From the NCBI GenBank assembly GCA_965279375.1, contig OZ257156.1, positions 1,376,001 through 1,440,000 of the forward strand: 64,000 nt of DNA. Direction: 5' to 3'. Positions 3 through 20,110 of the stretch are shown piece by piece (position 1 is the first letter of the stretch; every line of letters starts with the position of its first letter). Position numbers and translations under genes: made by a program. A model generated the notes under the pieces. The model worked only from the letters and a program-made list of their open reading frames with translations, searched no databases and had not been told where the DNA came from. Source of the DNA: Gemmatimonas sp. Lineage in GTDB: Bacteria > Gemmatimonadota > Gemmatimonadetes > Gemmatimonadales > Gemmatimonadaceae.

Positions 3-227
3 CACGTCCACGACGCGCTGCATCGGTCGCTCACGCATGCGAGCTACCACGTGGGCCAGCTCGTGTACCTGGCGCACGCTCACCGCGGCCCGGCGTGGGA
101 GTACCTGAGCATTCCGCCCGGGGGGTCGGCGGCCTACAACGCGGCGCCGTCGAGAGAGACCCCGGGGGCGCACATCGCGACGTTGCGGGACCGCCAGTCC
201 GCGGGCGCTGGCGATCCAGCGGTCTAA
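3..227 (+). CDS. DUF1572/DinB-superfamily protein, C-terminal fragment (5' truncated by window)
   Basis: Frame 3 reads HASYHVGQLVYLAH...WEYLSIPPGGSAAYN. Its TAA (225-227) lies inside the R'' box GTCTAAC. Confidence 0.75.
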   Translation, partial: HVHDALHRSLTHASYHVGQLVYLAHAHRGPAWEYLSIPPGGSAAYNAAPSRETPGAHIATLRDRQSAGAGDPAV

Positions 228-331
228 CCTTGCGTTGCTCTTGACGGGTTGCGAAGGATGGCAGCCTGTTCGCTGGCGCTCACTGGCCGCAGGCTATTGC
301 AGGGCCCTGCAAACGTACGCCATGGTTAGGC
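222..331 (+). repeat. attC-like site 1 (intact core boxes)
   Basis: GTCTAAC CTTGC GTTGC ... GGGCCCTGC ... GTTAGGC, 110 bp. Confidence 0.88.
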
Positions 332-343
332 GACAGCACCACG

Positions 344-1633
344 ATGCGATGTCCTAGGATCACCTTCTTCTGCGCCCTATCCATGTGTCAACTGCGTTCG
401 CCGCGCCGTTGGGCGTGCCTCGTGAGTGCGTGGGTGGTGGGTACGATCGCCGGCGCCGGCGCGCTGTCGGCCCAAGCGCCCGCGTTTCGGCTTCCAACGC
501 CGACGGGACGCGACGCGATCGGCACAACCCGGTTCGTCCTCGACGCCGCTCGTCCGCGCCCGCTGGTGGTGACCGCGTGGTACCCGGCGCGCCGACTCGC
601 GAAGACCACCCCGCTTGCGCCGTATCTACGCGAGGAAGCCGCCCTGCGGACGATGGCGGCATGGGGCCAGAATCCCGGCCCAATGCTCCTGCGCAACGCC
701 ACTGTTGTCACGCACAGCCACGTTGACGCGCCCGTGGCGCGCAATGCCCTGCCGGTGGTGGTCTTCTCGCACGGCTATCTGGACCAGCCGAGCAGCTACA
801 CGGCGTTGATGGAGGAACTCGCCAGTCACGGCTACGCTGTGTTCAGCGTGGCGCATACGGGTGAGACGATGGCGGTCACCCTGCCCGGCGGTCGCGTGTC
901 GTCGATCTTTCAGGAAACGGGTGGGCTCCAACCAGTGCCTGCCGCGGTGTCGGTGGAATGGCGTGCCGAGGATTCCGTCGCCACGGCCATCACGACCGCG
1001 CCGACCGCCGCGACAGCGGAGGCATTGCTCCGCGCATATCTGCGCGGCATCCCGACGGCGACCGCCGCAATGGAGCGCTGGGCGGACGACTTCCGCCGGG
1101 TCGTCGATGCGCTGGGACGTCACAATGCTCCCCGGTCGGGCTCCCCGTTCGCGCAGCGCCTCGACCTCGCGCAGGTGGCGGCGGTGGGGCACTCGATGGG
1201 AGGCGTGGCGAGCGCAACGTTCTGCGCCCGAGACGATCGGTGCCGCGCGGCCATCAACCTCGACGGCTCGCCGCAGTACGGGGATCTGATCGATCGTCCG
1301 TCGCGGACCCCGTTGCTCATGGTGTACGGGTCGCGCGCGGGCCGCATTGGCGTCAGTGACGTCGCGTATGACCGAGGCGCGGAATACTGGCGCGCCGTGA
1401 TTGACGGGGCGCTCCATCTGAACTTTGGAGACTGGATGTACTGGCCGGCCGACTCGCCCGTTGCCGCTTCGTTGGGCGCCCTAAGTGCCGAGGCGTGCAC
1501 CACCGTGGTCCATCGCGTCGTGCGCGAATTTCTCGATCGCACACTGCGCCGCACGCCCGCGCCCTTGTTCGAGGGGCGCGCATCGCTGCCCGCGTTGACC
1601 CTGACCCAACGCACGGGTGGCCGAGGGCCGTGA
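344..1633 (+). CDS. Secreted alpha/beta hydrolase (PAF-acetylhydrolase/dienelactone-hydrolase-like)
   Basis: PVVVFSHG, ELASHGY, GHSMGG nucleophile elbow, INLDG, HLNFGD. Signal-peptide-like N-terminus. Start codon uncertain. Confidence 0.8.
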   Translation: MRCPRITFFCALSMCQLRSPRRWACLVSAWVVGTIAGAGALSAQAPAFRLPTPTGRDAIGTTRFVLDAARPRPLVVTAWYPARRLAKTTPLAPYLREEAALRTMAAWGQNPGPMLLRNATVVTHSHVDAPVARNALPVVVFSHGYLDQPSSYTALMEELASHGYAVFSVAHTGETMAVTLPGGRVSSIFQETGGLQPVPAAVSVEWRAEDSVATAITTAPTAATAEALLRAYLRGIPTATAAMERWADDFRRVVDALGRHNAPRSGSPFAQRLDLAQVAAVGHSMGGVASATFCARDDRCRAAINLDGSPQYGDLIDRPSRTPLLMVYGSRAGRIGVSDVAYDRGAEYWRAVIDGALHLNFGDWMYWPADSPVAASLGALSAEACTTVVHRVVREFLDRTLRRTPAPLFEGRASLPALTLTQRTGGRGP

Positions 1634-1674
1634 GGAGACGCCGGTTCGCCCCGCGCAGCGTCCTCGCGCACTTT

Positions 1675-1785
1675 CCCTAACCTTGCGTTGCGGTAGATTG
1701 GGTTCTCAAGGACTGCCGCCATTGCTCGCTGCGTCGCTGGCCGCATGCTGTGGAAGGGCCGCGCTACGGAACGCGAACGTGAGGT
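1675..1785 (+). repeat. attC-like site 2 (R' = GTGAGGT)
   Basis: CCCTAAC CTTGCGTTGC ... GAACGCGAAC GTGAGGT, 111 bp. Confidence 0.85.
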
Positions 1786-1816
1786 CGCACCGACAACCCT
1801 CGAGAGAGCCTCGTCG

Positions 1817-2263
1817 ATGTCTATCGTGAAGGTCGTGCCTGTGGTGCTGCGCCGTCACGGTGACCGAACGGAGGTGCTCGTGTTCGAGCATCCACAAGCG
1901 GGCACGCAGCTCGTGAAGGGCACCGTCGAAGCGGGGGAAACGATCGCCACCGCCGCCACGCGCGAGTTGGCGGAGGAGTCGGGCATCGTCGACGCCGTCG
2001 CCGTGCGCGACCTCGGCGTCTGGCATCGGGGGCCGCCCGGTCAGGTGTGGCACTTCTGCGAAATGGCCACGTCGTCTTTGCCCAATGCCTGGGACCACAT
2101 CACCGACGACGACGGCGGCCATCGCTTCGCATTCTGGTGGCATCCGATCGCTGAGCCAGCGCCGTCGAGCTGTCATCCCCTCTTTGCTGACGCGTTAGCG
2201 TTCCTGCAGCCGCGCGTGGCCACCGATCTGGCGTCGTCGCCGTCGCAGCCGTCGCAGCCGTAG
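1817..2263 (+). CDS. NUDIX hydrolase
   Basis: KGTVEAGETIATAATRELAEESG Nudix box. Start moved to ATG 1817 because the track start lies inside the attC. Confidence 0.88.
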   Translation: MSIVKVVPVVLRRHGDRTEVLVFEHPQAGTQLVKGTVEAGETIATAATRELAEESGIVDAVAVRDLGVWHRGPPGQVWHFCEMATSSLPNAWDHITDDDGGHRFAFWWHPIAEPAPSSCHPLFADALAFLQPRVATDLASSPSQPSQP

Positions 2264-2304
2264 CGCGTACGCACTGAATCGCCTCCGTCTCTCGTGGAGC
2301 CCGC

Positions 2305-2880
2305 GTGGACCAGCCGTCGTTGTACACGTCTCGCTTGATCTTGCGCCCGTTCGGGCGCGCAGACGCTCCTGCCGTGCAGCGGCTGGCGGGCGCCGCGGCG
2401 GTCGCGGAGATGACGCTGAACATTCCGCATCCCTACGCCGACGGAATGGCGGAGGCGTGGATCGCAACACTCGGCGAAGCCTGGCGAGCCGGGACCGCGG
2501 TGACGTTTGCGATCACGACCGCGACGGACGGGCTGTGCGGCACCATCGCGCTGCGCATCACGCGCGAGCACGACCGCGGGGAACTCGGCTACTGGATCGG
2601 CCAGCCGTTCTGGGGCCGAGGCTATGCGACGGAGGCGGTTACCGCGGTGCTCGCGTTCGCGTTCGAGACGCTCGCGCTCCATCGCGTCCAAGCCTCGCAT
2701 CTGCCGCGCAATCCGGCGTCAGGGCGCGTGATGCAGAAGGCGGGCATGCAGCGCGAGGGGCTCCATCGGGGACGCTATCGGAAGGAGGCGGCGTACGAGG
2801 ATGTGGAGGAGTACGCGATCCTGCGGTCCGATTGGGACGCGCGCGTTGACCAGCACGCCCGTTCGGGCGGTGCGACCTAA
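2305..2880 (+). CDS. GNAT N-acetyltransferase, RimJ/RimL type
   Basis: ELGYWIGQPFWGRGYATEA and NPASGRVMQKAGM motifs. Stop TAA inside ACCTAAC. Confidence 0.9.
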   Translation: MDQPSLYTSRLILRPFGRADAPAVQRLAGAAAVAEMTLNIPHPYADGMAEAWIATLGEAWRAGTAVTFAITTATDGLCGTIALRITREHDRGELGYWIGQPFWGRGYATEAVTAVLAFAFETLALHRVQASHLPRNPASGRVMQKAGMQREGLHRGRYRKEAAYEDVEEYAILRSDWDARVDQHARSGGAT

Positions 2881-2986
2881 CCTTGCGTTGCCTCTGGCAG
2901 GGCTTCCACGGACTGCCGCCATGACTCGCTCCCCTCGCTGGTCGCAACTTGCTGAAGGGCCCTGGAGCACAACGCGAACGTTCGGC
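2875..2986 (+). repeat. attC-like site 3 (R' = GTTCGGC)
   Basis: ACCTAAC CTTGCGTTGC ... GAAGGGCCCTG ... AACGCGAAC GTTCGGC, 112 bp. Confidence 0.85.
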
Positions 2987-3350
2987 AGCGGCGGCCCTCG
3001 AGGAGTGCCGACTGTGAGAGCCGCAGTGCGAGCGTACGCGTCGGTGTCTCCAGTACATCACGCGCCGCATCCGCGATCACTCAGGGAACTTGACGGAGTG
3101 TATCGCGCGAATGGCGCGCTCTCCCTGTGGTCGTTCGTCGACGGGGGATGTCAGGTCGAGACAACGCGGTGGTGAAGTGCTGCCTCGACGGCTTCCCGGT
3201 TCAGCGCGTCGTCTCAGCGTAGAACCACGCGCTCGGCGAGTGTGGGGAGAGCGCGGCCCTGCGCGATACGCTCGGTCTCTTCGAACGCGCTAACTTCGAG
3301 CGGCATCCCCAACCCCTCGCGCTCCCGAGCCACAGCCCCGCGCTAACGCC

Positions 3351-5317
3351 ATGTACCCAAGGCTGATTCTTGCAACTCTGTTCGCGGCCGTTGCCGTCTC
3401 CGAGGCGCACGCGCAGGTTGCGCGCTTCACCGCGAAGCCGAGCGTGGTGGATGCGGGCGGCTACTACGCCATCCAATACACGTTCACCGCGGGTGCGGGT
3501 GGCTTCGCGCCGGGCGGCGGCGTCCGCATCGAGATCCCGGTTGCGTACGCGGAGACAGAGTCGTTGCTCTGGAGCGCACCGCAGACGATGACAGCGACGG
3601 CGCCGGGCTATGTCACCGCCAGTGCGTCGAACAGCGCACGCGTTCGCGTGCAGATCGCCGGACTGCTACGCGGGATCATCGAGGCGAACTTCGAAGACGC
3701 GATCCCCGCTGGCACCACGGTGTCGATCCGCTATCAGGGGCAGGTGCAGGGGATCGCCGGTGAGATCGATGCGCGCTATCAGTCACGCGCGACTGCACGT
3801 CAACCATGGGCGACGCCGGCACGCGTTCCGCGCATGACGGTGCGCCCGGCGCGCGCCGAACTAGTCTCCGTCAGCTATCCGTCGGACATCGTGCGCGGCG
3901 CCCCGTTCGCGTTGACGGTCGTCGCGCTGGACCGGTACGGCAACGTCGCCACGCACTTCACGGGTAGTCTACAGCTGCAATCGACGGACACGGCGGCTGC
4001 AATTCCGCGATCGGTCACCTTCCGTGCAGCCGATCACGGCCGAGTCGTCATTCCCGATGCAGTCTTTCGTAGCAACGGCTTCCAGAAGGTCACGGCAACC
4101 GCACGCAACACGATCGCCACCGCGTTCAAGTACGCGATGGTCGGTGAGAGCGCACCGGCGATGCTGCACCTGTTCGGTGACACGCACTTTCACACCGGTA
4201 CGGGAGCACAGAGTCGCGGATTCTTCACGAACGCGACAGGAACTGACGTCAACACGACTGGCACGAGCAACTTCAAGGCGCTCAATCTTGCCGGCGACCA
4301 TCGCGCGAACTTCACGCGCGCTGCGGACGCATACACCTACGCTCGCGATCTCATGCATCTCGACTTCGCCAGCACGGCGGAGCACTCGGCGCCGATCCTC
4401 ACGCCAGCCGCCTGGAGCGGGTCGCAGGATGCGTCCGATGCGTTCGATGTGCCCGGTCTATTCACGACGTTCTATGGCTTTGAATGGACGCCGGACCTGA
4501 ATCACTACGTCGTGCTGTACAAGAACCGATCCGGGCAGCCGATCGGGAATGACAGCCTCCGGGACTTTCCGTCGCTGGCGCGTGCGTTGGAGGCACAGGG
4601 CGTTCCCGTGCTCGCGATTCCGCACGTGTCATGGCCATTCAGCGATCACAACATCTGGCAGGACACGGCGGGTCGTGCATTCCGTCGCGTCGGCGAGATG
4701 TATTCGCTTTGGAACAGCCGACATCTCGTTCAACCCGACGATGATCCACAGCTTTTTGAGTTGGGGGCCGCGAATCGTGGTCCTACCAGCACGCATGGAT
4801 GCGTGGCCTCCGCCTCGGCGTGATCGCTGCAAGCGACAATCACCTCGGTCATCCGGGTGCGAACAATTCGTCCGTGTACGTACGCCACTCGGGTGGACTC
4901 GCCGGCGTGTTGGCCCGCGGCAATGACCGTGAGCAAGTCTGGCGGAGCATGAGTGGGCGCATGACGTACGCGACCACGGGCACGCAGATCTACCTGGATT
5001 TCGCGAGCGACGGGCACGTGATGGGGAGCGAATATGAATCCACAATGCCGCCGCGGCTCACCGGACGCATCGCCGGTACGAATCGACTCGCGTCGGTGGA
5101 AGTCGTGCGTCTCGCTGCAGGGCGCTACGAAACGATCTTCAGCGCAAGCCCGGATCGAGAGACGTTCGCCTTCGATTTCGTGGACACGAGCGTTGTCGGA
5201 CCTGTGATGTACTATCTGCGCGTGAAGCAGGTCGAGGAATACCCGGGTCGATTGTATTCTCACTCCACCGCCGAGATGGCGTGGTCAAGTCCAATCTGGA
5301 TCGACATTCCCAGGTAG
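3351..5317 (+). pseudogene. DUF3604-like (PHP-type metal-binding) secreted protein, split by a 1-nt frameshift at ~4760-4778
   Basis: The first ORF has a signal peptide, GDTHFHT, EHS and GFEWT. The second frame continues WSYQHAW..LGVIAASDNHLGHPG..GGLAGVLA..YATTG..AWSSPIW. Pseudogene or assembly error. Confidence 0.7.
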
Positions 5318-5335
5318 CACGGTCCGCCTGTCCCC

Positions 5336-5445
5336 GCCTAACCTTGCGTTGCGCTTGGCAGGGCTTTCACGGATTGCTCCCGGTTCGCTGCACTCATTGG
5401 TCGCATCCTATTGCAGGGACCAGCTGCAGGATCCAATCGTCAGGC
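5336..5445 (+). repeat. attC-like site 4 (R' = GTCAGGC)
   Basis: GCCTAAC CTTGCGTTGC ... CGCATCCTATTGCAGGG ... GTCAGGC, 110 bp. Confidence 0.82.
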
Positions 5446-5665
5446 GTCGTCATCGAAGACGTGGCGTGACGGGAACTCCGCGGTCGCCCGTCCCCGGATC
5501 GAGCCCGTCGGTGCGCGGGCGATCGACCGTGCCGGCCGAGACGGACCACTGGTCGTGGTGGGGTCGTCCGGGCCGGGAGGCCCGGGAATCCCCGACCCGC
5601 GGCGCGTCAGCATCGACGATCGTCTGCTCGTTGCCAGCGTCGTGTCGTCTTCCACCGCGTTCGTG

Positions 5666-6121
5666 ATGACCGCTCGGGATGCCTTTCGTCAGTGGTCGTG
5701 GTTCCGCCGCCCGTGGCGGCTCGAGATCATCGTGCTCTTCGCAGTGCTCTGGCAGGAAGCGCTGCGGCTGGAATGGCGCACCGCGCATCGGGTGCTGCCG
5801 CTCTCCCCACGCCTGACGGCGCTGTACTACTACCAAGCCGGCGACTTCGTGAATGGGTACCTGAACGCCTTTCTCATCGACGGAGTCACCGCGGTCGTGC
5901 GCCAGTCCCGGGCCGGGCGTGCGTCGCTGACGCGTGCGGCGTTCGTCCGACAGGCGCTGGTCGCGAGCGGACTGTCAATCGCGAGCATCGTGGTGATCGA
6001 ACTCGGGCAATCCGCGCTCAATCATCCGGATGTCGCCGACATCCCCGCGGGGGTGGTGGGCGCGCTGCTGTACCTGCTGGTCCGCGTGGCTGCGCTGCGG
6101 GCGGCGCGGCCGGACGCGTAA
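5666..6121 (+). CDS. Hypothetical membrane protein
   Basis: Hydrophobic segments and C-terminal DVADIPAGVVGALLY. Start chosen downstream of the attC and is uncertain. Confidence 0.6.
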   Translation: MTARDAFRQWSWFRRPWRLEIIVLFAVLWQEALRLEWRTAHRVLPLSPRLTALYYYQAGDFVNGYLNAFLIDGVTAVVRQSRAGRASLTRAAFVRQALVASGLSIASIVVIELGQSALNHPDVADIPAGVVGALLYLLVRVAALRAARPDA

Positions 6122-6147: not shown

Positions 6148-6260
6148 GCCTAACCTCGCGTTGCGGTAGACAGGGCCTGTCCGGAGTGCGGCCTATTGCT
6201 CGCTGCGTTCGCTGGCCGCATCCTTTGACAGGGCCCTGCCATAGAACGCGAGCGCTGGCG
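6148..6260 (+). repeat. attC-like site 5 (degenerate R' GCTGGCG)
   Basis: GCCTAAC CTCGCGTTGC ... internal TGCGGCC/GGCCGCA hairpin ... GGGCCCTGCC ATAGAACGCG. Confidence 0.82.
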
Positions 6261-6988: not shown

Positions 6989-7100
6989 GACTAACCTTGC
7001 GTTGCGGTAGTCACGGATTCCAAGGACTGTCGCCATTGCTCGCTGCGCTCGATGGCCGCATCCTATGACCGGGCCCTGCCGCCGAACGCGAACGTTGTCC
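6989..7100 (+). repeat. attC-like site 6 (R' = GTTGTCC)
   Basis: GACTAAC CTTGCGTTGC ... GGGCCCTGCCGCCGAACGCGAAC GTTGTCC, 112 bp. Confidence 0.83.
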
Positions 7101-7994: not shown

Positions 7995-8104
7995 GCCTAA
8001 CCTTGCGTTGCGGAAAGCATGGTCATCGCGGAGTGCAGGCTTGCTCTCTCCGGTCGCTGCCTGCAATCCATTTGAGGGCTCGCGAGCGAACGCGCCCGTT
8101 AGGT
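7995..8104 (+). repeat. attC-like site 7 (intact core boxes)
   Basis: GCCTAAC CTTGCGTTGC ... GAGCGAACGCGCCC GTTAGGT, 110 bp. Confidence 0.88.
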
Positions 8105-8844: not shown

Positions 8845-8955
8845 GCCTAACCTCGCGTTGCTGCTGACGGCGGCATCACGGACTGCCGCCCTGGCTCCCT
8901 CCGGTCGCAGCCTGCCACCTATTCAGGGCCCTGCGAGCGAACGCCACCGTTAGAC
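8845..8955 (+). repeat. attC-like site 8 (intact core boxes)
   Basis: GCCTAAC CTCGC GTTGCTGCTGACG ... GGGCCCTGCGAGCGAACGCCACC GTTAGAC, 111 bp. Confidence 0.9.
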
Positions 8956-9153: not shown

Positions 9154-9756
9154 CTATCGCGTCACCAGAACGCTGCGCTCGATCGCGCGACACGCACTCG
9201 AGAAGTCAGTGTCCGGGAGGTGCAAGAGCGCGCTCATGCCCCACAGACTGGCCACGATGGCGAGGCTGAGGGCACGAGGCTCTACATCGCTTCGGAAGAC
9301 GCCAGCGTCTATGCCCGCACTCAGCACGCGTTCAACGGAACCTGTCCAGTGCTGGTGCAGCGGAGCGATGAGTCGGGCGACTTCTTCGTCCCGTTGCGCG
9401 CGCAGCGTGAGTTCGAGCGTAGCGCTCAAGATATCGGGGAACTCCGCGCGATAAAACGCCGCATCCGCGAACTCCTGCCGCAACAGGCGGAGCGAATCCG
9501 GTACGTCCGGTTCGCGAGGCAGCGTCGGGGCTCGGTGCGCGCCGTAAAAGCGAGCGAGGTGCGATGCAACGCCCTCGACGAGGTCTTGCTTGGAAGCGAA
9601 GTAGTGGTGAAGGGTCGCGCTGTTGATGCCGACTCGGGTTGCGACGTCCCGAATTCGCAGTCCTTCGAATCCCTTCTCCGCGAGCAACTGCAAGGCGCAG
9701 TCGAGTACCTGCTGTCGACGCTCATCTGCCGGTAGGCGCGTTGCACGGGTGGCCAC
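9154..9756 (-). CDS. TetR/AcrR-family transcriptional regulator
   Basis: RRQQVLDCALQLLAEKGF..IRDVATRVGINSATLHHYFASKQDL HTH. Confidence 0.92.
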   Translation of the reverse strand: MATRATRLPADERRQQVLDCALQLLAEKGFEGLRIRDVATRVGINSATLHHYFASKQDLVEGVASHLARFYGAHRAPTLPREPDVPDSLRLLRQEFADAAFYRAEFPDILSATLELTLRAQRDEEVARLIAPLHQHWTGSVERVLSAGIDAGVFRSDVEPRALSLAIVASLWGMSALLHLPDTDFSSACRAIERSVLVTR

Positions 9757-9765
9757 TAGGCCATC

Positions 9766-10125
9766 CTAGGATGTGGCGTACAGTCGTACGTCGTTTCCAT
9801 CAGGATCGGAGATGGTGCTGATACGCGGGCCACCGCCCAGCTCGATTGGACGGTGCAGCGGTCGAATGCCGCGTCCCTCAAGGTCCGCAAGAAATGCATC
9901 CAAGTCGTGAACCTGAAACGACGGAGTGATGCACTGCGCTCTGCCCGCGATGCCTTTGAGAATGGCGAAATGTATGCCCGCAACGTCGCACTCATAGTGT
10001 TGCGGTAACTCACCGTGCTGGCTGAGCACATACGGGATTCCAAGAACCTCTCGGTAGAACGCTGCCGCTCGATCTGGATCAGGAGACGTCATGATGATAC
10101 CGGTCAACTGGGCCGCTACGGTCAC
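9766..10125 (-). CDS. VOC/glyoxalase-family protein
   Basis: DPDRAAAFYREVLG, FQVHDLDA and DPDGN motifs. Confidence 0.88.
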   Translation of the reverse strand: MTVAAQLTGIIMTSPDPDRAAAFYREVLGIPYVLSQHGELPQHYECDVAGIHFAILKGIAGRAQCITPSFQVHDLDAFLADLEGRGIRPLHRPIELGGGPRISTISDPDGNDVRLYATS

Positions 10126-10160
10126 GGAAACCTCTTGTTCTGGGGGTTAGGGTGAGAATG

Positions 10161-10184
10161 TATCTATCAAGCAGATGATAGATA
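10161..10184. promoter_or_regulatory. Putative TetR operator
   Basis: Perfect inverted repeat TATCTATCA-N6-TGATAGATA, 36 bp upstream of the VOC-TetR operon. Confidence 0.7.
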
Positions 10185-10371
10185 GAGTCCAAGCCGACCA
10201 CCGTCAAGCCATCGACGGAGAACACCAGTGCAGAAGCTTCGTCCCTTGGACGTCGACGCGGCATCGAAATACCGCGTCGAATTCAGTGCCTACGACTCAA
10301 GCCTCGCGACCGCGTACACGCTCGTCCGGAGGATCATTCGTCGCGCCGCTGGTCCTCTGCGCGTCGAACAC

Positions 10372-10794
10372 TCACGGCGCGTCCGCGGCCCACTGTGCAC
10401 GGACCTGGCGCAAGAACTTTGCGCGCTGGCCCCGCATGAACGCGATCGTGGCGGCCGGCGCCTCCGTCTGTTCGTGGTCCGCCGACCAGAGCACCAGTTC
10501 GGTCATCATCGGCGCCAAGGCGATGCCCTTAGCCGTCAGACGATAGACGAAGCGGCGGCCATCCGCGCGGTCGCGAGTCTTCGTGAGAAGACCTGCCAGC
10601 TCGAGACGTTCCAAGCGGTCGCTCAAGATGTTGCTGGCGATGCCCTCCCCCGCTTCGAGGAAGCCGCCGAAGGTCTTGATACCCTTGAACATCAGATCGC
10701 GGACGATCAGGAGCGACCACGGGTCGCCAAAGAGTTCGAGCGCGAGGCTGATCGGGCATCCGGAGCGCGGCTGCGACGACGATGTACGAGGCAT
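10372..10794 (-). CDS. HxlR-family winged-helix regulator
   Basis: SGCPISLALELFGDPWSLLIVRDL, IASNILSDRL, YRLTAKG. Start set at ATG 10794. Confidence 0.9.
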   Translation of the reverse strand: MPRTSSSQPRSGCPISLALELFGDPWSLLIVRDLMFKGIKTFGGFLEAGEGIASNILSDRLERLELAGLLTKTRDRADGRRFVYRLTAKGIALAPMMTELVLWSADHEQTEAPAATIAFMRGQRAKFLRQVRAQWAADAP

Positions 10795-10813
10795 GAAAGA
10801 CTCCGGAAAAACA

Positions 10814-10832
10814 TACTTGCACGGTGCAAGTA
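10814..10832. promoter_or_regulatory. Putative HxlR operator / divergent promoter
   Basis: Perfect palindrome TACTTGCAC-G-GTGCAAGTA between the divergent HxlR gene and the membrane gene. It contains TTGCAC on both strands. Confidence 0.7.
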
Positions 10833-10881
10833 ATATGGTAGCTTGGGCGACCATTGTCGGACCCTCACCCTGGAGTCGTCT

Positions 10882-11289
10882 ATGGGTCGCCCCTTCTGGC
10901 TGGCCGTTGCGGCGTATCTCGTGCCCACCTTCCCGCTTGGGTACTTCTGGCACCTCACCACCTTTCGGGCGCAATACGACCGGCTTGCAATGTATCGAGA
11001 GCCGGTCCTCATACCGCTCGGACTGAGTTCCATGTTGATCCAGGCGGTGCTGTTTGCGTGGCTCTATCCCCGCGTCTTCAGCACCAGCCGCGACCTCTGG
11101 CTCCAGAGCGCGGGCGGGTTCGCACTCGTGGTGGGCGTATTGGCGTGGTCCTTCACGACGCTCCCGGTTGCCGCCAAGTATCGCATGACGTCCGTGTCGC
11201 AGTTCCTCCTCCTGGAGTCGGCGTTCACGGTGGTCCAGTTTCTGGTGGTCGCCCCGCTCATCGCGCTGGCGTGGCGGGATCCGGCGTAG
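10882..11289 (+). CDS. Four-TM membrane protein (DUF1761-like)
   Basis: GGAG RBS, four hydrophobic helices, LGYFWHL..F motif. Confidence 0.7.
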   Translation: MGRPFWLAVAAYLVPTFPLGYFWHLTTFRAQYDRLAMYREPVLIPLGLSSMLIQAVLFAWLYPRVFSTSRDLWLQSAGGFALVVGVLAWSFTTLPVAAKYRMTSVSQFLLLESAFTVVQFLVVAPLIALAWRDPA

Positions 11290-11308: not shown

Positions 11309-11445
11309 GGCTAACCATGCGCTGCTGTTGGCAGGGCCTTCAATGATTGCCGCCTTGTTCGTTGCACCGCGCCGGCGCGGACTCCCTCCCGTGCTTGCGC
11401 GCGCTCCTTCGCGCCCACCTAATTGTGGAGGAACGCGGTGCAGGC
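11309..11445 (+). repeat. attC-like site 9 (left arm clear, right arm degenerate)
   Basis: GGCTAAC CATGCGCTGCTGTTGGCAGGGCC. Right end poorly defined (GAACGCGGTGCAGGC). Confidence 0.65.
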
Positions 11446-12793: not shown

Positions 12794-12903
12794 ACCTAAC
12801 CTTACGTTGCCATCAATGGCACCGCGAAGGATCGCGAACTCTTCGCTGGCGCTCGCTGGCCGCAACCGAGTGAAGGGCCCTGCGACAGCACGCGCTGTTG
12901 GAT
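12794..12903 (+). repeat. attC-like site 10 (R' = GTTGGAT)
   Basis: ACCTAAC CTTACGTTGC ... GAAGGGCCCTGCG ... GTTGGAT, 110 bp. Confidence 0.85.
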
Positions 12904-13249: not shown

Positions 13250-13962
13250 CCGCCCTCCTTCGCGTCGAGAGCGTGGCCAAGTCCTATGAGGGGCGCCGCG
13301 TGTTGTCGTCGGCCTCGCTGCGCGCCGTGCCAGGCGAACTGCGCGTGCTCTTTGGTCGCAACGGCATCGGGAAGTCCACGCTGCTCAAGATCGCGGCCGG
13401 ATGCGTCGCGCCCGACGGCGGGACCGTGCACTTCGGGGCGCGCGCGTACTTGCACGCGCGTCTCCACACGTTGGCGTCGGCCGGCTTGTTCAATCTCCCG
13501 GACGCGGACCTCTTGTCGTCGGCGTTCACGGTGCGGCAGCAGCTCACGTTGTTTCAGTGCCAGTACGGCGGTGGCACGATCGACGAGGCAGCGGCGCGCG
13601 TCGGCATTGGCGCCCGCCTGGATCAGCGTCCCGACACGTTGTCGGGCGGGGAGAAGCGGCGCGCCGAGTTGGCCGCGGTGCTGGTGCGACACCCCACGTG
13701 TCTGTTGGCCGACGAGCCGTATCGCGGGCTCGCGCCGCACGACGCCGAGGTGCTTACCGGCGTCCTGCGAGGGCTCGCGGCCGAGGGCGTGGCGGTGCTC
13801 GTTAGCGGCCACGAGGTGCCGACGCTCCTCGACGCCGCGGATCACATCACATGGTGTACGAGCGGCACGACCTACGAACTCGGGCCGCCGGCGGTCGCTG
13901 TGCAACACGCGGCGTTTCGGAGCGAGTACTTGGGTCCGTGGCGCGTGCCGCCTACCGTCTAA
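13246..13962 (+). CDS. ABC transporter ATP-binding protein (LptB-like)
   Basis: Walker A GRNGIGKST, LSGGE, LLADEP and H-loop. Stop TAA inside GTCTAAC. Confidence 0.88.
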   Translation: MTALLRVESVAKSYEGRRVLSSASLRAVPGELRVLFGRNGIGKSTLLKIAAGCVAPDGGTVHFGARAYLHARLHTLASAGLFNLPDADLLSSAFTVRQQLTLFQCQYGGGTIDEAAARVGIGARLDQRPDTLSGGEKRRAELAAVLVRHPTCLLADEPYRGLAPHDAEVLTGVLRGLAAEGVAVLVSGHEVPTLLDAADHITWCTSGTTYELGPPAVAVQHAAFRSEYLGPWRVPPTV

Positions 13963-14070
13963 CCTCCCGTTGGTGTAGATGGTCGCTCTGCGGCGCGGCG
14001 TGTAACTCGGCTGCTCGCGGTGACGCGCTCACGGCTTCCACGTTGGGCCGCCGAAGCGAAATGGTCAGGC
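13957..14070 (+). repeat. attC-like site 11 (divergent interior, R' = GTCAGGC)
   Basis: GTCTAAC CTCCCGTTGG ... GTCAGGC, 114 bp. Its right flank is complementary to the left flank of site 12. Confidence 0.75.
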
Positions 14071-14191: not shown

Positions 14192-14785
14192 ATGCGTCTC
14201 ATCCGGCAGTCCACCGTGCGCGCTCTCGCCCTGCTCAGCAGCCTTGCCCTCCCTGCGATGGCGCAAGAGCGCGCGGCCCGCACCCATACGACCGGATTGT
14301 TGCTCGGGTATGGGACCGAAGCGAACGTGGTTACGAGCCAGCCGGGCGTCCCGAGTACCGCGAACGAGCACGTGGTCGGGCAGGGACTTACCCTCGGCTA
14401 TGGTTTCACTCGGCACTGGGCCGCCTACATCAACGCGGGCTGGGGCGGCTTCGAGACGACGCGGGCCAACCGGACGGGCGTCGGCTCGGTGGACCTTGGC
14501 GCGCGCTACCATGCGCCGACGGTCTTCCGCGTGATCACCCCGTTTCTGCAAGGCGGGCTCTCCAGCCGCACGCTCAGTCGGGATCGCGTCGAGGCCTCCA
14601 CGGGCCTCGTGCAGAACGGGATGGCGTGGCGCACGATGGCGGCGTTTGGCGGTGGCGCGAACGTCCATGTCACGCGGAGCCTCGCGGTCACCGGCATGTC
14701 GACCTGGGGCGCGACGTCCGGCGGGATTGCGAGCCCGCGTCTGCATGTGGGCGTGCTTCTCCTGCCGGGTGCCTGGCGCCGGTGA
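14192..14785 (+). CDS. Outer-membrane beta-barrel protein (OmpA/OmpW-like 8-strand)
   Basis: Signal peptide ending AMA-Q, then alternating beta strands (GLTLGYGF, VDLGARY, PFLQGGL, FGGGANV). Confidence 0.75.
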   Translation: MRLIRQSTVRALALLSSLALPAMAQERAARTHTTGLLLGYGTEANVVTSQPGVPSTANEHVVGQGLTLGYGFTRHWAAYINAGWGGFETTRANRTGVGSVDLGARYHAPTVFRVITPFLQGGLSSRTLSRDRVEASTGLVQNGMAWRTMAAFGGGANVHVTRSLAVTGMSTWGATSGGIASPRLHVGVLLLPGAWRR

Positions 14786-14819
14786 ACGCCAGCGGGTCCG
14801 CGATCGGGAGGGCAAAAGT

Positions 14820-14938
14820 GCCTAACAGTGCGTTGCTGTTGCCTACTGCTTGACGAATTGCGGACGGTTCGCCGCGCGCACTGCGCTCGCCGGCCGCAAC
14901 AGATTGAAGGCCGCTGCAGCGGAACGCAGTCGCCAGGC
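14820..14938 (+). repeat. attC-like site 12 (R' = GCCAGGC)
   Basis: GCCTAAC AGTGC GTTGCTGTTGC ... GCAGCGGAACGC AGTC GCCAGGC. The L boxes pair with one bulged base. 119 bp. Confidence 0.82.
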
Positions 14939-15084
14939 AGCCTCTGACGTGTGAGTGCAACAACCGAAATGACCCGGCGGTAGGCTCCATCGGCCTGCGA
15001 CGCGTCTGTCGGTGCATGGCGATGAAAGCGCGGCACCCGAACGGGACGCGCCATATGCGAAGCTCAATGCAGACGGAGCGACGG

Positions 15085-15663
15085 ATGCGGACCTCACGCG
15101 TGTGGGGCGGGCTCGGGTTGGTGGTGATGCTTACGCCGCCAGTGTCGGCGCAAGACACCAATGGCGAGGGCAAGGCGGTGACGGATGCGCGAGTCCGGTT
15201 CTCGCTCGCCGATATTCAGAGTCTCGAGGCGTGGACGACGCGGCACACGACCCTCACGGGGACCGTGCAGCCGTCCGAGCCGCCCACGACGCTGCGTGTC
15301 CGCGTCCGAACGACGCCCGATTCGGCCTATCGCACTATCGTGCGCGTGCTGACGGAGCGAGGGTACTCCGTGCGGGACGGACTCCCGCATGCGTTGTCCA
15401 CGAGCGATCACTACGTCGCCGGGGTGGGCATGGTGCGCGTCCATGTGCGCGTGCTTCCCGACAGCCTCGGATCCGTTGTACACGTCTCCGGCGAATGGCG
15501 CCGGTTGCGCCGGCTGTTGATCGTGTCCGCGATGTCAAAGGACTCCGTCGTCATTGCCGCCGGCGCAGGTGGCGCGCGTGGCGCGCAGGCGTGGCAGGAA
15601 CTGTCGGCGATCGGCGAGGAGCTTGGCGGGGTGGTGCTGGATGAGACGGACCTCCACCGTTGA
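15085..15663 (+). CDS. Secreted hypothetical protein
   Basis: GGAG RBS before ATG 15085, signal peptide ending VSA-Q, no recognisable family. Confidence 0.55.
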   Translation: MRTSRVWGGLGLVVMLTPPVSAQDTNGEGKAVTDARVRFSLADIQSLEAWTTRHTTLTGTVQPSEPPTTLRVRVRTTPDSAYRTIVRVLTERGYSVRDGLPHALSTSDHYVAGVGMVRVHVRVLPDSLGSVVHVSGEWRRLRRLLIVSAMSKDSVVIAAGAGGARGAQAWQELSAIGEELGGVVLDETDLHR

Positions 15664-15698
15664 TTCTGTCGGAGAGTCTGCGGTGTTGGTTGGTCGCG

Positions 15699-15810
15699 GC
15701 CTAACCTTGCGTTGTGGCGGTCAAGGCCTGTTCGGATGGAGGCCTATTGCTCGCTTCGCTCATTGCGGAATCCCACTGAAGGGCCCTGCAAGCGAACGAA
15801 TTCGTATCGT
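15699..15810 (+). repeat. attC-like site 13 (degenerate R')
   Basis: GCCTAAC CTTGCGTTG ... GAAGGGCCCTGCAAGCGAACG AATTC GTATCGT. Confidence 0.8.
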
Positions 15811-16052
15811 ACCCGCCTCCGCCCTGCTGCTGTTCACGCGTTGCACGCCGAACGGCAATGTGGCAGCCGAGACGTGTCGTTCGGCGAGCGGAGAATAGAC
15901 AGGTCCGGGCTTCGCGAGTATTCGTGCGGTGACGTATTCTGTAGCTTCGATGAATACGCGCACTCCATTCTCGGGGAACCATTCTTGTCACGCATGCTTC
16001 GCGAACGAAAGGACGACGGCAGGTGCGGTCCGAATTGCAGCCCCGCGCGCGC

Positions 16053-16775
16053 ATGAGTGAGCCGGTTCAATCGACACGGTATCGGCTGCTCGTCGACCAC
16101 CTCGGTACGGGGCTTACGCTGAGCTACCTCGTTCTGGTGGCGATCGGCATGTTCCACAGTGTCCTCGGATATCGCCACTTCGGGATAAACATTCTGGACT
16201 ATGCCGAGGCCAGCGACTTCCTGCTCGCGCCGTTTCGGGACCCCATGGTGATGGTCGTGACGGTTCTTCCCGCCGTCCTCGCGTGGGCGTATCTGCGATT
16301 CGTCGAACGGTACTCCACGCGCGTGCGGGAGCGGCGTCGCGCCGAAGGGAAAGCACTCGCCTGGTGGGAAAGCAGCGACGCCACGCTGGCGCGCACGAAG
16401 CCACTGGGGCCGTTCCTCGTAGTCGGGATGGCGATGTTCTGGGTGTTCACGAGCGCGAACGCCTACCAACGCATTCGCGCCGCACAGGTGATGCGGGGGG
16501 AGGGACACAACGTCATCATCGAACTGACGAACGGAACACTCGATGGCGGTACTCCCCGTCGTCCGTTGGTCATGGTCGGGGCGACGAGTCGCTACTTCAT
16601 TTTCTTCCGCACGGCGGACTGGCGGACGGAAGTGATGCCAACCGATAACGTGTTGCGGATCCTTCCCGACGGATCGCTACCCGAGTCCAGTGTGTCGCGC
16701 CGTGAGCGCAGTTGGCAGCGGCTCGATGCACGTCCACTCCCGCCAAGCGGCGCGGACTCGACGAAAGGGCGCTGA
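16053..16775 (+). CDS. Hypothetical membrane protein
   Basis: TM helices with YRHFGINILDYAEASDFLL and a C-terminal VGATSRYFIF soluble domain. Confidence 0.7.
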   Translation: MSEPVQSTRYRLLVDHLGTGLTLSYLVLVAIGMFHSVLGYRHFGINILDYAEASDFLLAPFRDPMVMVVTVLPAVLAWAYLRFVERYSTRVRERRRAEGKALAWWESSDATLARTKPLGPFLVVGMAMFWVFTSANAYQRIRAAQVMRGEGHNVIIELTNGTLDGGTPRRPLVMVGATSRYFIFFRTADWRTEVMPTDNVLRILPDGSLPESSVSRRERSWQRLDARPLPPSGADSTKGR

Positions 16776-16779
16776 GTAG

Positions 16780-16827
16780 GCCGGCTGCAACTTGTTGATT
16801 TGAAATGCAGTCGCGCGAACGTCAGGT
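16780..16827 (+). repeat. attC right-arm-only remnant
   Basis: GCGAAC GTCAGGTCGCA matches the right arm of site 2 and is complementary to the left flank of site 14. No TAAC left arm. Confidence 0.7.
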
Positions 16828-16853
16828 CGCATCACACACTCTTCTCACATGCA

Positions 16854-17408
16854 ATGAACGCTGGTTCTACGAGCGTCGCTGACGCACAACGCGACATGCG
16901 CGCGGGGTACTACGGTGGGGCGCCGGGAATGTTCGCGTCCGCGCTGGTCTGGCTGGTCGCGGGCGTCGTCGCGACCACGAGCGCGCCGCCGCGCGCGATC
17001 CTGGCGCTGTTCGTCGGAGGCATGGTCATTCACCCGCTCGGCGTGGCGCTCACAAAGGCGCTCGGCCGCTCGGGTGCGCACACGCGGGGCAATCCGCTCG
17101 GCGCGTTGGCACTCGAAAGCACCGTCATCCTGCTGCTCGGCTTCCCGCTCGCGTTCGTGGTGTCGCAGACCCACGTGACGTGGTTCTTTCCCGCCATGTT
17201 GCTGGTCATCGGCGGACGCTACCTCACGTTCTCGACGCTGTATGGGATGCGGGTGTACTGGGCCGGTGGCGCGATGCTCGCCGTCGCCGGGTTTCTGCTG
17301 GTGGCGATGGACGCGCCGTTCCATGTGGGGGCGTTTGTCGGCGCTGCGATCGAAGGCGCGTTTGCCCTGCTCATCTTCCGTCTGATCCGGGGAGCGGATA
17401 GCGTGTGA
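16854..17408 (+). CDS. Multi-TM membrane protein (DUF7010-like)
   Basis: AQRDMR..Y.GGAPG, NPLGALA and WFFPAMLLVIGGRYL.F.TLYG motifs. Confidence 0.75.
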   Translation: MNAGSTSVADAQRDMRAGYYGGAPGMFASALVWLVAGVVATTSAPPRAILALFVGGMVIHPLGVALTKALGRSGAHTRGNPLGALALESTVILLLGFPLAFVVSQTHVTWFFPAMLLVIGGRYLTFSTLYGMRVYWAGGAMLAVAGFLLVAMDAPFHVGAFVGAAIEGAFALLIFRLIRGADSV

Positions 17409-17463
17409 TGTGCGGGCTCGTCGACAATCGGGAGGCATCCAATGGACCGGTGCAGACGACGCG

Positions 17464-17520
17464 ACCTAACCTTGCGTTGCGGCAGATGAGGCTTGCACGG
17501 ACTGACACGGTGCTCGCTAC
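17464..17520 (+). repeat. attC-like site 14, left half only
   Basis: ACCTAAC CTTGCGTTGC ... GGACTG ... TGCTCGCT, after which similarity stops. No R'. Confidence 0.75.
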
Positions 17521-17566
17521 CTGATCGACGAGTTCCAGCCAAACAATTCTTCTCGGTGGAGCGACG

Positions 17567-17995
17567 ATGCCCCTGCAGGTTGTGGAGACGATTGTCGTGG
17601 CGGTCACGCCAGAGCCCGTGTGGCGTGCGGTGACGGATCCGGCGGAGCTCATCCAGTGGTATGCGCCTGGCTGTCGCTGGGAGATCCCCGAGCTCGCGGT
17701 GGGCGCACCGGTGCGCTTCTTCAACAGCGAGACGGATGTGCAGCCCGCAGAGATCATCGCGCTCGTGCCTGCGCGTCGCTTGGCGCTCCGCTGGCGACCG
17801 GATCCCACGCTGCCGACCGCAACGCTGTGCACCACGTACGAACTGGTGCCGACCGGGACGGGGACGACAATCACGCTCCGGCACGACGAGTACGAGTCGG
17901 TGCCGGAGGCGCAGCGCGCGGATTGGCTGGCGGCGGATCAGGGCGCGGTGCCGGCGATTCTCGCGGCGCTCGCCCACCACGTCGCGCCCGTATGA
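17567..17995 (+). CDS. SRPBCC/AHSA1 domain protein
   Basis: PEPVWRAVTDPAELIQWY and GTTITLRH motifs. Confidence 0.85.
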   Translation: MPLQVVETIVVAVTPEPVWRAVTDPAELIQWYAPGCRWEIPELAVGAPVRFFNSETDVQPAEIIALVPARRLALRWRPDPTLPTATLCTTYELVPTGTGTTITLRHDEYESVPEAQRADWLAADQGAVPAILAALAHHVAPV

Positions 17996-18043
17996 GAGCG
18001 GCTGCTTCGTACGTGATACCCTGATGGCGACGGAGCGCAATCA

Positions 18044-18634
18044 ATGGATGTAACCCCGCTGGTGTTTCTGCCGTTCTTCGGCGTCGTCGCTGTGCTGGGG
18101 ATTGGCGTGCCAACCGCGGCCGTGCTTGCCCTGCGCTGGCGCCGGGCGGCCGCACGCCGGACCAGCGTCGGCGGCTGCGGTCGGTGCGCGGCTCCGATGT
18201 CGGTCGCCGACGAGCAGTTCCTGGTGCTCGGTCGGCCAGTCTGTCGCGCGTGCGCGAACACGCTGCGCCGACGCGTCGGCGGGAGCATGATGGCCGTCGC
18301 ACTCACGATCACCGCATTGTTGACGGTATCCACAGGGGCGGTTCTCGTGGATCTGGTCGTCGATGGCGCCCCGTCGTGGCGGTGGTGGACGAAGAACGCG
18401 CGGCTCGCAGTCGTGGTATTGCCGACCGTCGCTCTGCTGACCGCGTCGGTGCTTGCCATTCGCGTAGGAGCGCTCGCGAATCGCCTCGGTGCGTCACGCG
18501 TAATGGGGGCCGGCGGCGGCCGTCCTCGCCTCCCGCTGCTCGCGCGCCTTCTGGCCACGTTCGAGCTGCCCGAGGAAGGGCACGACCGGGCCATACCGAT
18601 GCGCGTTCGCGCGCGTGACGACAAGACGTCGTAG
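18044..18634 (+). CDS. Hypothetical membrane protein with CxxC...CxxC zinc ribbon
   Basis: TM helix, CGRC...VCRAC, then two more TM helices. Confidence 0.6.
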   Translation: MDVTPLVFLPFFGVVAVLGIGVPTAAVLALRWRRAAARRTSVGGCGRCAAPMSVADEQFLVLGRPVCRACANTLRRRVGGSMMAVALTITALLTVSTGAVLVDLVVDGAPSWRWWTKNARLAVVVLPTVALLTASVLAIRVGALANRLGASRVMGAGGGRPRLPLLARLLATFELPEEGHDRAIPMRVRARDDKTS

Positions 18635-18697
18635 GTTGAATGCATAGGTGACGTGAGGAACGCTAAATGGAGGGCGACCCCACAGCGATCTGGTGCC

Positions 18698-18735
18698 AGC
18701 TAACCTTGCGTTGCTGGGGAACGCGAGCGTCAGGC
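18698..18735 (+). repeat. attC-like site 15, internally collapsed (38 bp)
   Basis: AGCTAAC CTTGC GTTGCTGGGGAAC GCGAGC GTCAGGC. Confidence 0.78.
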
Positions 18736-18774
18736 CTCACCCCATTCTTGAACGCATTCCTGGAGCGGGTTGCC

Positions 18775-19524
18775 TTGGACGCACGGACGCAGGAGTTCTT
18801 AACCGCGTGTGAAGTCCATTCCGTTGCGCGCCTGCGCGCCGTGCTCGCCGCGGGCTTCGACGTGCACGCCCCGATCGCTGGCCTGAGCCCGGTCACGACG
18901 CTCGTCGAGATGTACTACCGATCGAATGCCTTCGCCGAGTGCCTCGCTCTGCTGCTCGACGCCGGCGGGACCCTGGACGATCCGCGACTCGCGCCGGTGC
19001 TCCGGAATGACCCGGACCGACTCCGCGTCGCGCTCGCGGCGGATCCTGGGTTGGTGGACCATCGCACGTCGCTCCGCTGCGCGTTCACTCCGCTCGACGG
19101 GGCCACACTCTTGCACGTGGCTGCGGAGTACGGCCATGTCGAGGTGGCGGAGGTTCTTATCGCGCACGGTGCCGACGTGAATGCCCGGGCGGCGGTCGAT
19201 CGGGACGGGTTGAACGGGCAGACGCCGATCTTCCACACCGTCAATGCGCACGCCAACCACGCAGCGCCGGTACTGGCTCTGCTGTTGGCGCATGGGGCGC
19301 GGACGGACGTGTTGCTCTCGGGGATCACCTGGGGGCGCGGCTTTCCGTGGGCGACCACCTGCTTCGACGTGACACCGATCGCGTACGCGCAGCTCGGCGC
19401 CCTGCCGCAGTTTCAGCGCAACGAGGTCCATCTCGCCGCGAACGTGACGGCGATGCTCACGGCCGCCGGGCGTCCCGTCCCCGAACACCGAAACGTCCCG
19501 AACCAGTATCTGCGTGAGGAGTGA
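18775..19524 (+). CDS. Ankyrin-repeat protein
   Basis: GATLLHVAAEYGHVEVAEVLIAHGADVNA and GQTPIFH. TTG start after GGAG. Confidence 0.85.
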   Translation: MDARTQEFLTACEVHSVARLRAVLAAGFDVHAPIAGLSPVTTLVEMYYRSNAFAECLALLLDAGGTLDDPRLAPVLRNDPDRLRVALAADPGLVDHRTSLRCAFTPLDGATLLHVAAEYGHVEVAEVLIAHGADVNARAAVDRDGLNGQTPIFHTVNAHANHAAPVLALLLAHGARTDVLLSGITWGRGFPWATTCFDVTPIAYAQLGALPQFQRNEVHLAANVTAMLTAAGRPVPEHRNVPNQYLREE

Positions 19525-19525
19525 T

Positions 19526-19549
19526 GCCTAACTTTGCGTTGCGGCAGGC
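19526..19549 (+). repeat. attC-like site 16, left arm only
   Basis: GCCTAAC TTTGCGTTGCGGCAG, with the next ATG a few bases later. Confidence 0.72.
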
Positions 19550-19555
19550 AAACTA

Positions 19556-20110
19556 ATGCGTAGTCAACTTCTCTTCGTGCAGGGCGGTGGCGCCGACACG
19601 CATGACGCGTGGGACCACAGGCTCGTGCAGAGCCTGCAGACGGCGTTGGGTCCGCACTACGAGATACGCTACCCGCGCATGCCGGACGAAGCCGATCCCC
19701 ACTACGCAGCGTGGAAGGCGGCGCTGTACGAGGAGCTTCACAAGCTCCGCGATGGGGCGATCCTCGTGGGGCACTCCATCGGCGGAACGGTGCTGCTGCA
19801 TGCCCTCGCCGAGCTGAAACCCATGCGAACATTTGGGGCAATCATCCTGCTCGCGGCGCCGTTTGTGGGCGAGGGCGGGTGGCCGAGCGACGAGATGCCG
19901 TCGGCGCCGGAATTTGCGAAGACGCTGCCGTCCGACGTTCCTGTCGTGCTGTATCAGGGGCTCGCGGATGACACCGTCCCACTCACGCATCTCGATCTGT
20001 ACACGAAGGCGATCCCCACGGCCCGCGTGCATCGACTCCCGGGCCGAGATCATCAGTTCAACGACGATCTGTCAGATGTCGCCCAGATGATCCGAACCCT
20101 GGGATCTTGA
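19556..20110 (+). CDS. Alpha/beta hydrolase (YdeN/RBBP9-like)
   Basis: LVGHSIGG, DDTVP and DHQF catalytic triad motifs. Confidence 0.85.
   Translation: MRSQLLFVQGGGADTHDAWDHRLVQSLQTALGPHYEIRYPRMPDEADPHYAAWKAALYEELHKLRDGAILVGHSIGGTVLLHALAELKPMRTFGAIILLAAPFVGEGGWPSDEMPSAPEFAKTLPSDVPVVLYQGLADDTVPLTHLDLYTKAIPTARVHRLPGRDHQFNDDLSDVAQMIRTLGS

Follow-up and report, generated by a model that had tools for sequence, protein, structure and literature searches.

The stretch of DNA analysed here, hereafter the window, comprises 64,000 nucleotides of the chromosome of a Gemmatimonas sp. (G000:C1:1376001-1440000, where G000 is this genome and base 1 of the window is G000:C1:1376001) and covers the distal, and oldest, part of a chromosomal integron that is complete and spans 148 kb. 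This integron carries 126 attC recombination sites, all on one (+) strand, with its integrase gene intI upstream of the window. The 16 sites in the window have lost their fold, which has likely fixed the cassettes where they are, and decay in them is one-sided: what persists is the left arm, a half-site that is also over-represented in the rest of the chromosome. Taken together, we consider it probable that the window contains a dead distal tail, whose half-sites have been kept by a process over-representing YTAAC-N5-RYTGC chromosome-wide.

From intact to decayed sites along one integron

The initial annotation, made from the letters of the window, had described a homogeneous cassette array of twenty kilobases with no integrase, belonging either to a lineage-specific chromosomal integron or to an attC cluster without integron integrases (CALIN). 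Its extent proved far too small, and its advice to look upstream for an IntI-type recombinase and an attI site was well placed, as both were found there, the latter as a candidate. The integrase gene lies 129 kb upstream of the window (G000:C1:1245997-1246980, +) and encodes an intact protein of 327 aa that scores 384 bits against TIGR02249 (cut-off 265), aligns end to end with VchIntI4 (2a3v), and has both the IntI-specific insertion and the catalytic residues of a tyrosine recombinase. It is encoded on the same strand as the attC sites, in the so-called inverted layout. The candidate attI adjoins intI, with a crossover G|TTAGGT at 1247265 and a core complementary to the first R''; this assignment is suggested by the G|TTRRRY core, the lack of a hairpin, and a simple site conserved in relatives, where CTAAT-N4-GTTAG marks attI. 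An attC-like hairpin in this region was rejected, as the region does not fold. With these elements in place, the whole is almost certainly a complete sedentary chromosomal integron (SCI) with an intact IntI and an attI.

A profile built from the upstream copies of the array found 124 same-strand sites from 1,248,091 to 1,395,526, to which two (13957 and 18698 in the window) were added from their left arms; the resulting 126 include the weak sites 107, 108, 125, and 126. Sites 1-110 lie upstream of the window, at 1248091-1375588, and the window left arms at 222-19526 correspond to sites 111-126. From the window to attI and intI the series is continuous, with a largest gap of at most 3.6 kb, and decay is graded along it. 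An independent CALIN, or a family of repetitive extragenic palindromic (REP)-like repeats unrelated to an active integrase, would fit the failure of every window site to fold, the seven strong solo copies present elsewhere in the genome in both orientations, and the cassette boundary rule described below, which fails in all three testable window junctions (0/3) and is a point against membership in the integron; however, the unbroken succession of 110 sites leading to attI and IntI makes this extremely improbable, and the CALIN option falls with the linkage of an integrase to the site cluster. One of the solo copies, a solo cassette at G000:C1:923845, keeps a matching core 1196 bp upstream, as expected of a secondary-site insertion. 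Another, at 3703111, has lost the interior of its attC by deletion.

The tail is not an assembly error: for three runs, an unbroken piece of the Logan contigs reproduces window positions 1-20000 without a single difference, and for a fourth the coverage comes in two pieces. These runs probably derive from the genome's own source sample, which makes them a check on the assembly rather than independent biology. Joints in the Logan contigs were rejected as evidence of excision, given that their sides are short and other attC copies fit. A search of the window against Rfam at the gathering threshold gave no match.

The proximal part of the array behaves as expected of functional sites. The names R'' and L'', as well as the DnaA-box and parS motifs, are used here in their usual sense. 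Perfect pairing of both the L and R boxes is seen in 87 of the 101 proximal sites, with the unpaired spacer and the extrahelical bases present (C and T on the bottom strand), and 24 chosen intact proximal sites show compensatory changes at 18 of 33 consensus pairs. The bases following the GTT of R' are complementary to the R'' of the next site in 97 of 103 junctions and to the site's own R'' in 16 (10,000 permutations gave a mean of 16.4 and a maximum of 31), the mark left when cassettes insert at G|TT. Identity of 100% is seen in six pairs of cassettes with different neighbours, all within cassettes 10-81, and one HAD cassette is present five times; no duplicate copy occurs beyond cassette 97. 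The array thus appears to be active, IntI activity being suggested by these identical duplicates. The left arm as a secondary attI was rejected, no such junction being found among the 126 R' boxes.

Towards the distal end, intact sites fall from 90 of 101 (sites 1-101) to one of nine (102-110) and none of 16 in the window. None of the window sites folds clearly better than its dinucleotide shuffles (bottom-strand z from -2.3 to +2.1; 30 shuffles per site, with four sites rechecked with 200). Hence, the attC architecture with pairing R and L boxes proposed for the window stands for the upstream sites and not for the window itself, where that pairing is lost, and the attI x attC assay suggested for its sites 1, 7, and 8 should give near zero. 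The 16 left arms are indeed all where they had been listed, on the + strand and just past gene ends, and the stops at 227, 2880, and 13962 do use the TAA of the R'' box. The shared interior was confirmed in part: 12 of the 16 sites have the interior of 110-113 nt, and one (13957) has that of a 119-nt subtype. The end box holds up worse, with exact GTTRRRY in three of 16 and no right arm at 11309, 17464, 18698, and 19526. The family is not homogeneous in the window either, where mean pairwise identity is 67% (11 full-length sites) compared with 79% for 68 proximal sites. In the transition zone of sites 102-110, six of seven full-length sites join two known but non-pairing L arms, as opposed to five of the first 101; we infer that these hybrids arose by recombination between repeats.

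These observations fit a succession in which IntI would insert circular cassettes at attI (G|TT), older ones being pushed outward; excision would be limited by the bottom strands lying on the leading-strand template; near-identical sites would recombine into hybrid, non-pairing attC sites (zone 102-110); and point mutation and deletion would then complete the decay (window). The strand assignment follows from dnaA at 1.199 Mb (1198767) and a GC skew minimum at about 1.23 Mb, which place the origin just upstream of the array, making the bottom strands of attC the leading-strand template. Besides dnaA, two more partial DnaA-like matches lie at G000:C1:3511467-3513314, one with an internal TGA.

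The element is a known, ordinary kind of superintegron, common in Gemmatimonadota relatives, and integrons are already listed for the phylum (in the review PMC8618304, and in PMC10500605). Contrary to the expectation that annotation would miss it, tools of the IntegronFinder type would find it, and IntegronFinder survey tables could list this lineage. With its 126 sites it resembles the superintegron of Vibrio cholerae in size, and likewise in its long homogeneous attC family, its bottom strand as leading template, its toxin-antitoxin (TA) and duplicated cassettes, and an IntI that aligns with VchIntI4. It differs in that intI is co-oriented with the array; that the array starts near oriC/parABS, whereas that of V. 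cholerae starts near ter2 (PMC13108822); that the bottom strand has C as its first extrahelical base, instead of the G16 of the V. cholerae repeat (VCR), a change that lowered integration 2.7-fold (PMC2727003); and that the long tail shows one-sided decay. The median number of sites is 100 for SCIs in this orientation, and 25 of 30 SCIs have the bottom strand on the leading template (PMC5371416), the stabilising orientation (PMC5371416, PMC13108822). As in the inverted-integrase or "reverse" integrons, for example those of Treponema spp., intI is on the attC strand and attI follows its 3' end; however, the phylum is different, and that group is paraphyletic, so the layout does not define a family (PMC4889954). 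Inverted integrases, single attC sites lacking integron integrases (SALINs), and erosion are all known (PMC4889954, 10.1101/2022.09.11.507474, 10.1101/2025.06.18.660453), including attC loss by slippage and insertion at attG (10.1101/2022.09.11.507474). Degenerate attC sites have been proposed as a step towards permanent gene fixation (PMC4889954), a view of CALINs and SALINs that suits both the decayed sites and the solo cassette with its matching core. Unlike those elements, the decayed sites here remain joined to a complete integron, and one half-site persists in them. Searches of open-access listings turned up no description of this array, and none of one-sided decay of attC or of an attC half-site spread genome-wide.

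What the array offers is a Vibrio-sized cassette bank, apparently active and carrying anti-phage and TA cargo in a little-studied phylum, where the whole life cycle of cassettes (intact, hybrid, decayed, half-site) can be seen in one place and the proposed route to domestication becomes measurable.

One-sided decay and a dispersed half-site

Neither the one-sided decay nor the genome-wide motif had been remarked upon in the initial annotation. Among the 11 full-length main-family sites of the window, one change was counted in 121 positions from near-invariant columns within the first 16 nt, compared with 87 in 550 elsewhere (p 3e-7), and the A/T columns of the same 16 nt show none in 55 compared with 39 in 176. 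These 11 sites are also detected by a hidden Markov model (HMM) of the interior only. Among the distal sites detected by their interior, TAAC is kept in 13 of 14 and GTTA in three of 14. In the control relative G291, which has about 50 homogeneous sites and no dispersed motif, TAAC and GTTA are each kept in three of 11 distal sites, so that TAAC retention differs from that seen here (3/11 vs 13/14, p 0.002). Overlap with stop codons as the reason for the retention covers only three of the 16 sites.

The same half-site is scattered over the chromosome. Outside the array, TAAC-N5-GTTG occurs 126 times, compared with 16 expected and 8-26 for other spacers, and TAAC-N5-GTTGC occurs 100 times compared with 6.3 in phase-matched spacers; in this part of the chromosome the family ranks top among all pairs of 4-mers with gaps of 3-10. 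Its profile, with a strict TAAC and a graded right half (YTAAC-N5-RYYGC), equals the left-arm profile of the attC sites of the genus. Sites are spread evenly round the chromosome on both strands, with no bias as to replichore (the leading strand holds 65 of 126), and about three quarters of the strong ones are inside mapped open reading frames (ORFs), on either strand. TAAC falls within the motif in two of 165 cases in DNA below 62% GC, compared with 312 of 3617 elsewhere, and no enrichment was seen in cassette bodies. An expectation-maximisation (EM) estimate gives about 770 sites, which is an upper figure, being seeded with our own pattern.

Comparison with a relative, G062, which has no excess (18 vs 15, 19, and 17), suggests how the motif was written into coding DNA. 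The first T of the motif is kept in seven of the 27 strong sites (of 314) that align gap-free to 1.6 Mb of G062, compared with 220 of 351 control TAAC words, and of 54 codons that changed, 44 did so synonymously, TTA frequently replacing CTG or CTC. The motif is accommodated mostly through rare synonymous codons. For this synonymous count the frame with the fewest differences was chosen, which favours the result, and 27 of 314 sites were alignable. Within the genome, 60 of 675 TTA codons fall inside the motif. Single-base deamination or miscalling as its origin was rejected, as no one-step parent word is depleted and the orthologues differ at varied positions.

This genome is the extreme for the motif among the 63 genomes of the genus and 261 of the phylum that were searched, the latter tally including one row for the unpublished genome G244. 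The motif is also dispersed in G088 (173 vs 52). Excesses of N5 over N8 of 2-6 fold in G078, G036, G107, G079, G035, G022, and G026 may be those genomes' own attC sites.

On account of the identical sequence and of one control genome, G291, we think it quite likely that the genome-wide motif explains the retention of the left arm. Several observations weigh against this explanation. The remnant at 26524 is an exception that has lost its left arm. In G088, which has the dispersed motif and the same attC family, 11 retrieved sites read by eye show no asymmetry, TAAC being lost in three and GTTA in three. The arrays of nine other relatives show none either (43 left vs 47 right changes in 32 pooled decayed sites, with noisy alignments), which fits their lack of the motif and is no positive test. 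G025 has no excess (8 vs 6) despite carrying the sister IntI of that of G088, and G291 lacks the motif despite its large array, so that array size alone is not the cause. Whatever its origin, the excess of half-sites is a separate and strong statistical fact that ties integron sites to chromosome-wide sequence evolution and provides a 14-base probe for finding the factor involved.

Possible causes of the motif

Our favoured explanation of the motif is a molecular drive by a factor that would recognise the double-stranded R''-N5-L'' half-site. As a tentative lead, that process could be a sequence-biased DNA uptake or recombination similar to that of the DNA uptake sequences (DUS) of Neisseria, given that the pattern resembles uptake sequences (PMC2817400) and that natural transformation supplies cassettes to the Vibrio integron (PMC12614218). 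Like the DUS, the uptake signal sequences (USS) of Haemophilus, and the highly iterated palindrome HIP1 of cyanobacteria, the motif is short, over-represented on both strands, located within genes as well, rare in DNA of recent acquisition (PMC2817400), and patchy among relatives. Unlike them, it is bipartite, with 14 bases that coincide with an attC half-site, and it is known from sequence statistics. For an uptake sequence, a few hundred copies over 5.3 Mb are sparse, and comEC, though present here, is shared by 10 of 14 control genomes; both count against the lead. A more specific version, in which the double-stranded left half of attC doubles in this lineage as an uptake or recombination tag and cells favour DNA bearing YTAAC-N5-RYTGC, is a doubtful one. 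If it were true, the tag would feed cassettes to an unusually large integron, be written into hundreds of genes through synonymous rare codons, and be preserved in dead cassettes, and attC would be the first integron site found to reshape the genome of its host.

Alternatively, IntI itself could bind the double-stranded R''-N5-L'', and the motif would be kept and spread by protection or biased repair where IntI is bound, or by selection for decoys that draw IntI off a very large array. The strict TAAC with a graded L half recalls an R box plus an L box, the identity with an attC half-site would need no coincidence, and the two clearly dispersed-motif genomes, this one and G088, carry IntIs that group with that of G025 in a single small clade (support 96/91), the three being also together in a species-tree clade. 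However, the lack of excess in G025 fits poorly; the motif includes the extrahelical G, while the version expected of a folded site, TAAC-N5-GTTC, is not enriched (15 vs 18, 27, and 22); selection would be expected to remove IntI sites that are off-target; and a simple three-base cassette scar cannot account for the retained L half. IntI binding comes next after biased uptake and is, on balance, unlikely to be the explanation.

A methyltransferase- or repair-coupled mutational sink, as for HIP1, could also make the motif, with the match to attC being secondary. The bipartite form TAAC-N6-TTGC resembles the shape of a type I site. A type I restriction-modification (R-M) locus is present at G000:C1:2171575-2179852, with hsdR, hsdS, two inserted genes, and hsdM in low-GC DNA. 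However, that locus lies in DNA of 56-62% GC and is probably recent, the profile is graded rather than strict, and the absence of a depleted one-step parent word and the varied differences among orthologues speak against one deaminated base or a miscall; we regard such an origin as improbable. Just as improbable is a host chromosome-organising or regulatory protein whose binding sites are kept by selection, the attC left arms among them, for example as promoters of the next cassette. The even spread round the chromosome is in its favour, as are the fit of TAACCT to a TANNNT -10 element and the truncations that bring a left arm near the next start (19526 to 19556), but the location of most strong sites inside ORFs, regardless of strand, is not. 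The -10 element in particular is unsupported, since TAACNT is not enriched in the tail (14/16 vs 74/101, p 0.35); promoters are described for gene-less cassettes, and not for attC, in 10.1101/2023.11.21.568050. The left arm as a LexA box was rejected: a conserved direct repeat, TTCG-N7-TTCG, overlaps the lexA and recA promoters (L190, L175-L209; this genome and about 30 loci of the genus), is likely the LexA box of Gemmatimonas, and differs from the motif in sequence. No such box was seen by eye in the 120 nt upstream of intI.

Cargo, relatives, and other features of the window

Cargo was scanned in 120 ORFs by Pfam and 48 by PADLOC upstream, and in 27 and 10, respectively, in the window up to 20110; the ORFs were picked mechanically, and some shadow frames are among them. 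Upstream defence cargo includes a Shedu-like nuclease in first position, PD-Lambda-2, PARIS AriAB (632 bits), SoFic, TIR, Mrr, and GmrSD-HEPN, together with about nine TA cassettes, while the scanned window ORFs gave no defence or TA match and encode hydrolases, NUDIX, GNAT, DinB, TetR, HxlR, glyoxalase, AHSA1, and ankyrin proteins. Cassettes below 62% GC make up 35 of the first 101 and none of the last 25. Cassette 7 holds an inverted class A beta-lactamase-like gene (L130:9537-10550, minus strand), below the family cut-off.

Among relatives, intI was found in 44 of the 61 genomes searched, this one included, in line with a chromosomal platform that the lineage shares and that no transposon carries. 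The closest named IntIs are from Gemmatimonas and Gemmatimonadaceae (63-70%), and the protein nests among them in the tree, in keeping with the attribution of the attC family to a sedentary chromosomal integron of Gemmatimonadota. Integrase gene and array are co-oriented wherever both were seen (G005, G009, G011, G025, G030, G032, G061-63, G070, and G291). The dctA-arsC-intI locus recurs in G025 and in none of the other fetched relatives. Relatives share the attC subtypes, which makes the family a genus-level pool, and a copy of the NUDIX-GNAT cassette, 84% identical, is flanked by two attC sites in the G011 array. The tail as a conserved block was rejected: among 86 genomes of the genus, single cassettes only were found, three candidates per genome being scored. 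The homogeneous array of G291 (G291:C8:181501-221500; L293-L294) has about 50 sites, a co-oriented intI, and a symmetrically decaying tail. In two relatives (L120, of G005, and L073), the attI crossover just after intI is followed by an identical terminal sequence and a gene resembling that of a transposase, which suggests an insertion sequence (IS) targeting attI. In G307, one partial intI match and seven near-identical integrase N-terminal matches are scattered over eight places of the chromosome.

Features of the window and solo attC copies (window positions, except where a contig is named)
Feature	Coordinates	Strand	Remark
Cassette 111 gene, DUF1572/DinB, 3' end	1..227	+	array enters window here
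attC 111	222..331	+	decayed, z -0.03; R'' TAA is the stop of the DUF1572/DinB gene
Cassette gene, PAF-AH-like alpha/beta hydrolase	344..1633	+	
attC 112	1675..1785	+	decayed, R' GTGA
Two-gene cassette, NUDIX and GNAT	1817..2880	+	
attC 113	2875..2986	+	decayed
DUF3604 gene	3351..5317	+	two overlapping frames, broken near 4800; contigs carry identical letters
attC 114	5336..5445	+	decayed
attC 115	6148..6260	+	decayed, z -2.2; L'' and L' of different subtypes
attC 116	6989..7100	+	decayed; L arms mismatched
attC 117	7995..8104	+	R boxes intact, L stem broken, z -0.44
attC 118	8845..8955	+	R boxes intact, L arms mismatched, z -1.0
Multi-gene stretch: TetR, glyoxalase, HxlR (minus), membrane protein (plus)	9157..11289		no attC found inside
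attC 119	11309..11366	+	left half only
attC 120	12794..12903	+	decayed
attC 121	13957..14070	+	119-nt subtype, decayed; TAA ends ABC-ATPase-like frame
attC 122	14820..14938	+	decayed
attC 123	15699..15810	+	decayed
attC 124	17464..17520	+	left half only
attC 125	18698..18716	+	left arm only
attC 126	19526..19550	+	left arm only; 30 nt before ATG of alpha/beta hydrolase (19556-20110)
Further remnant	26524..26641	+	119-nt subtype, left arm lost, E 1.4e-8
Solo attC copies	G000:C1:316902-318423, 673928, 904954, 911827, 923845, 109648, 3703111-3705221	both orientations	

The ABC-ATPase-like frame ending at attC 121 is labelled from a Walker A motif visible in its sequence. Between the last left arm and the remnant at 26524, the tail is interrupted on the minus strand (20119-24496) by a BlaI/BlaR-M56-TonB pair and a PIG-L deacetylase; cassette 98 carries a similar inverted BlaI-BlaR-serine hydrolase unit. 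Further on, small GNAT, GyrI, and AHSA1 genes at 39-52 kb are like cassette cargo with no attC, and are possibly a still older tail. The gene at 43501-44127 is a paralogue of cassette 21 (70% DNA identity), similar also to the cassette gene at 15016, and a left-arm-like motif lies 3' of it, at 44709. Within the 39-52 kb group, a rifampin ADP-ribosyltransferase, Arr, is encoded at 39685-40101 and scores above the NCBIfam cut-off.

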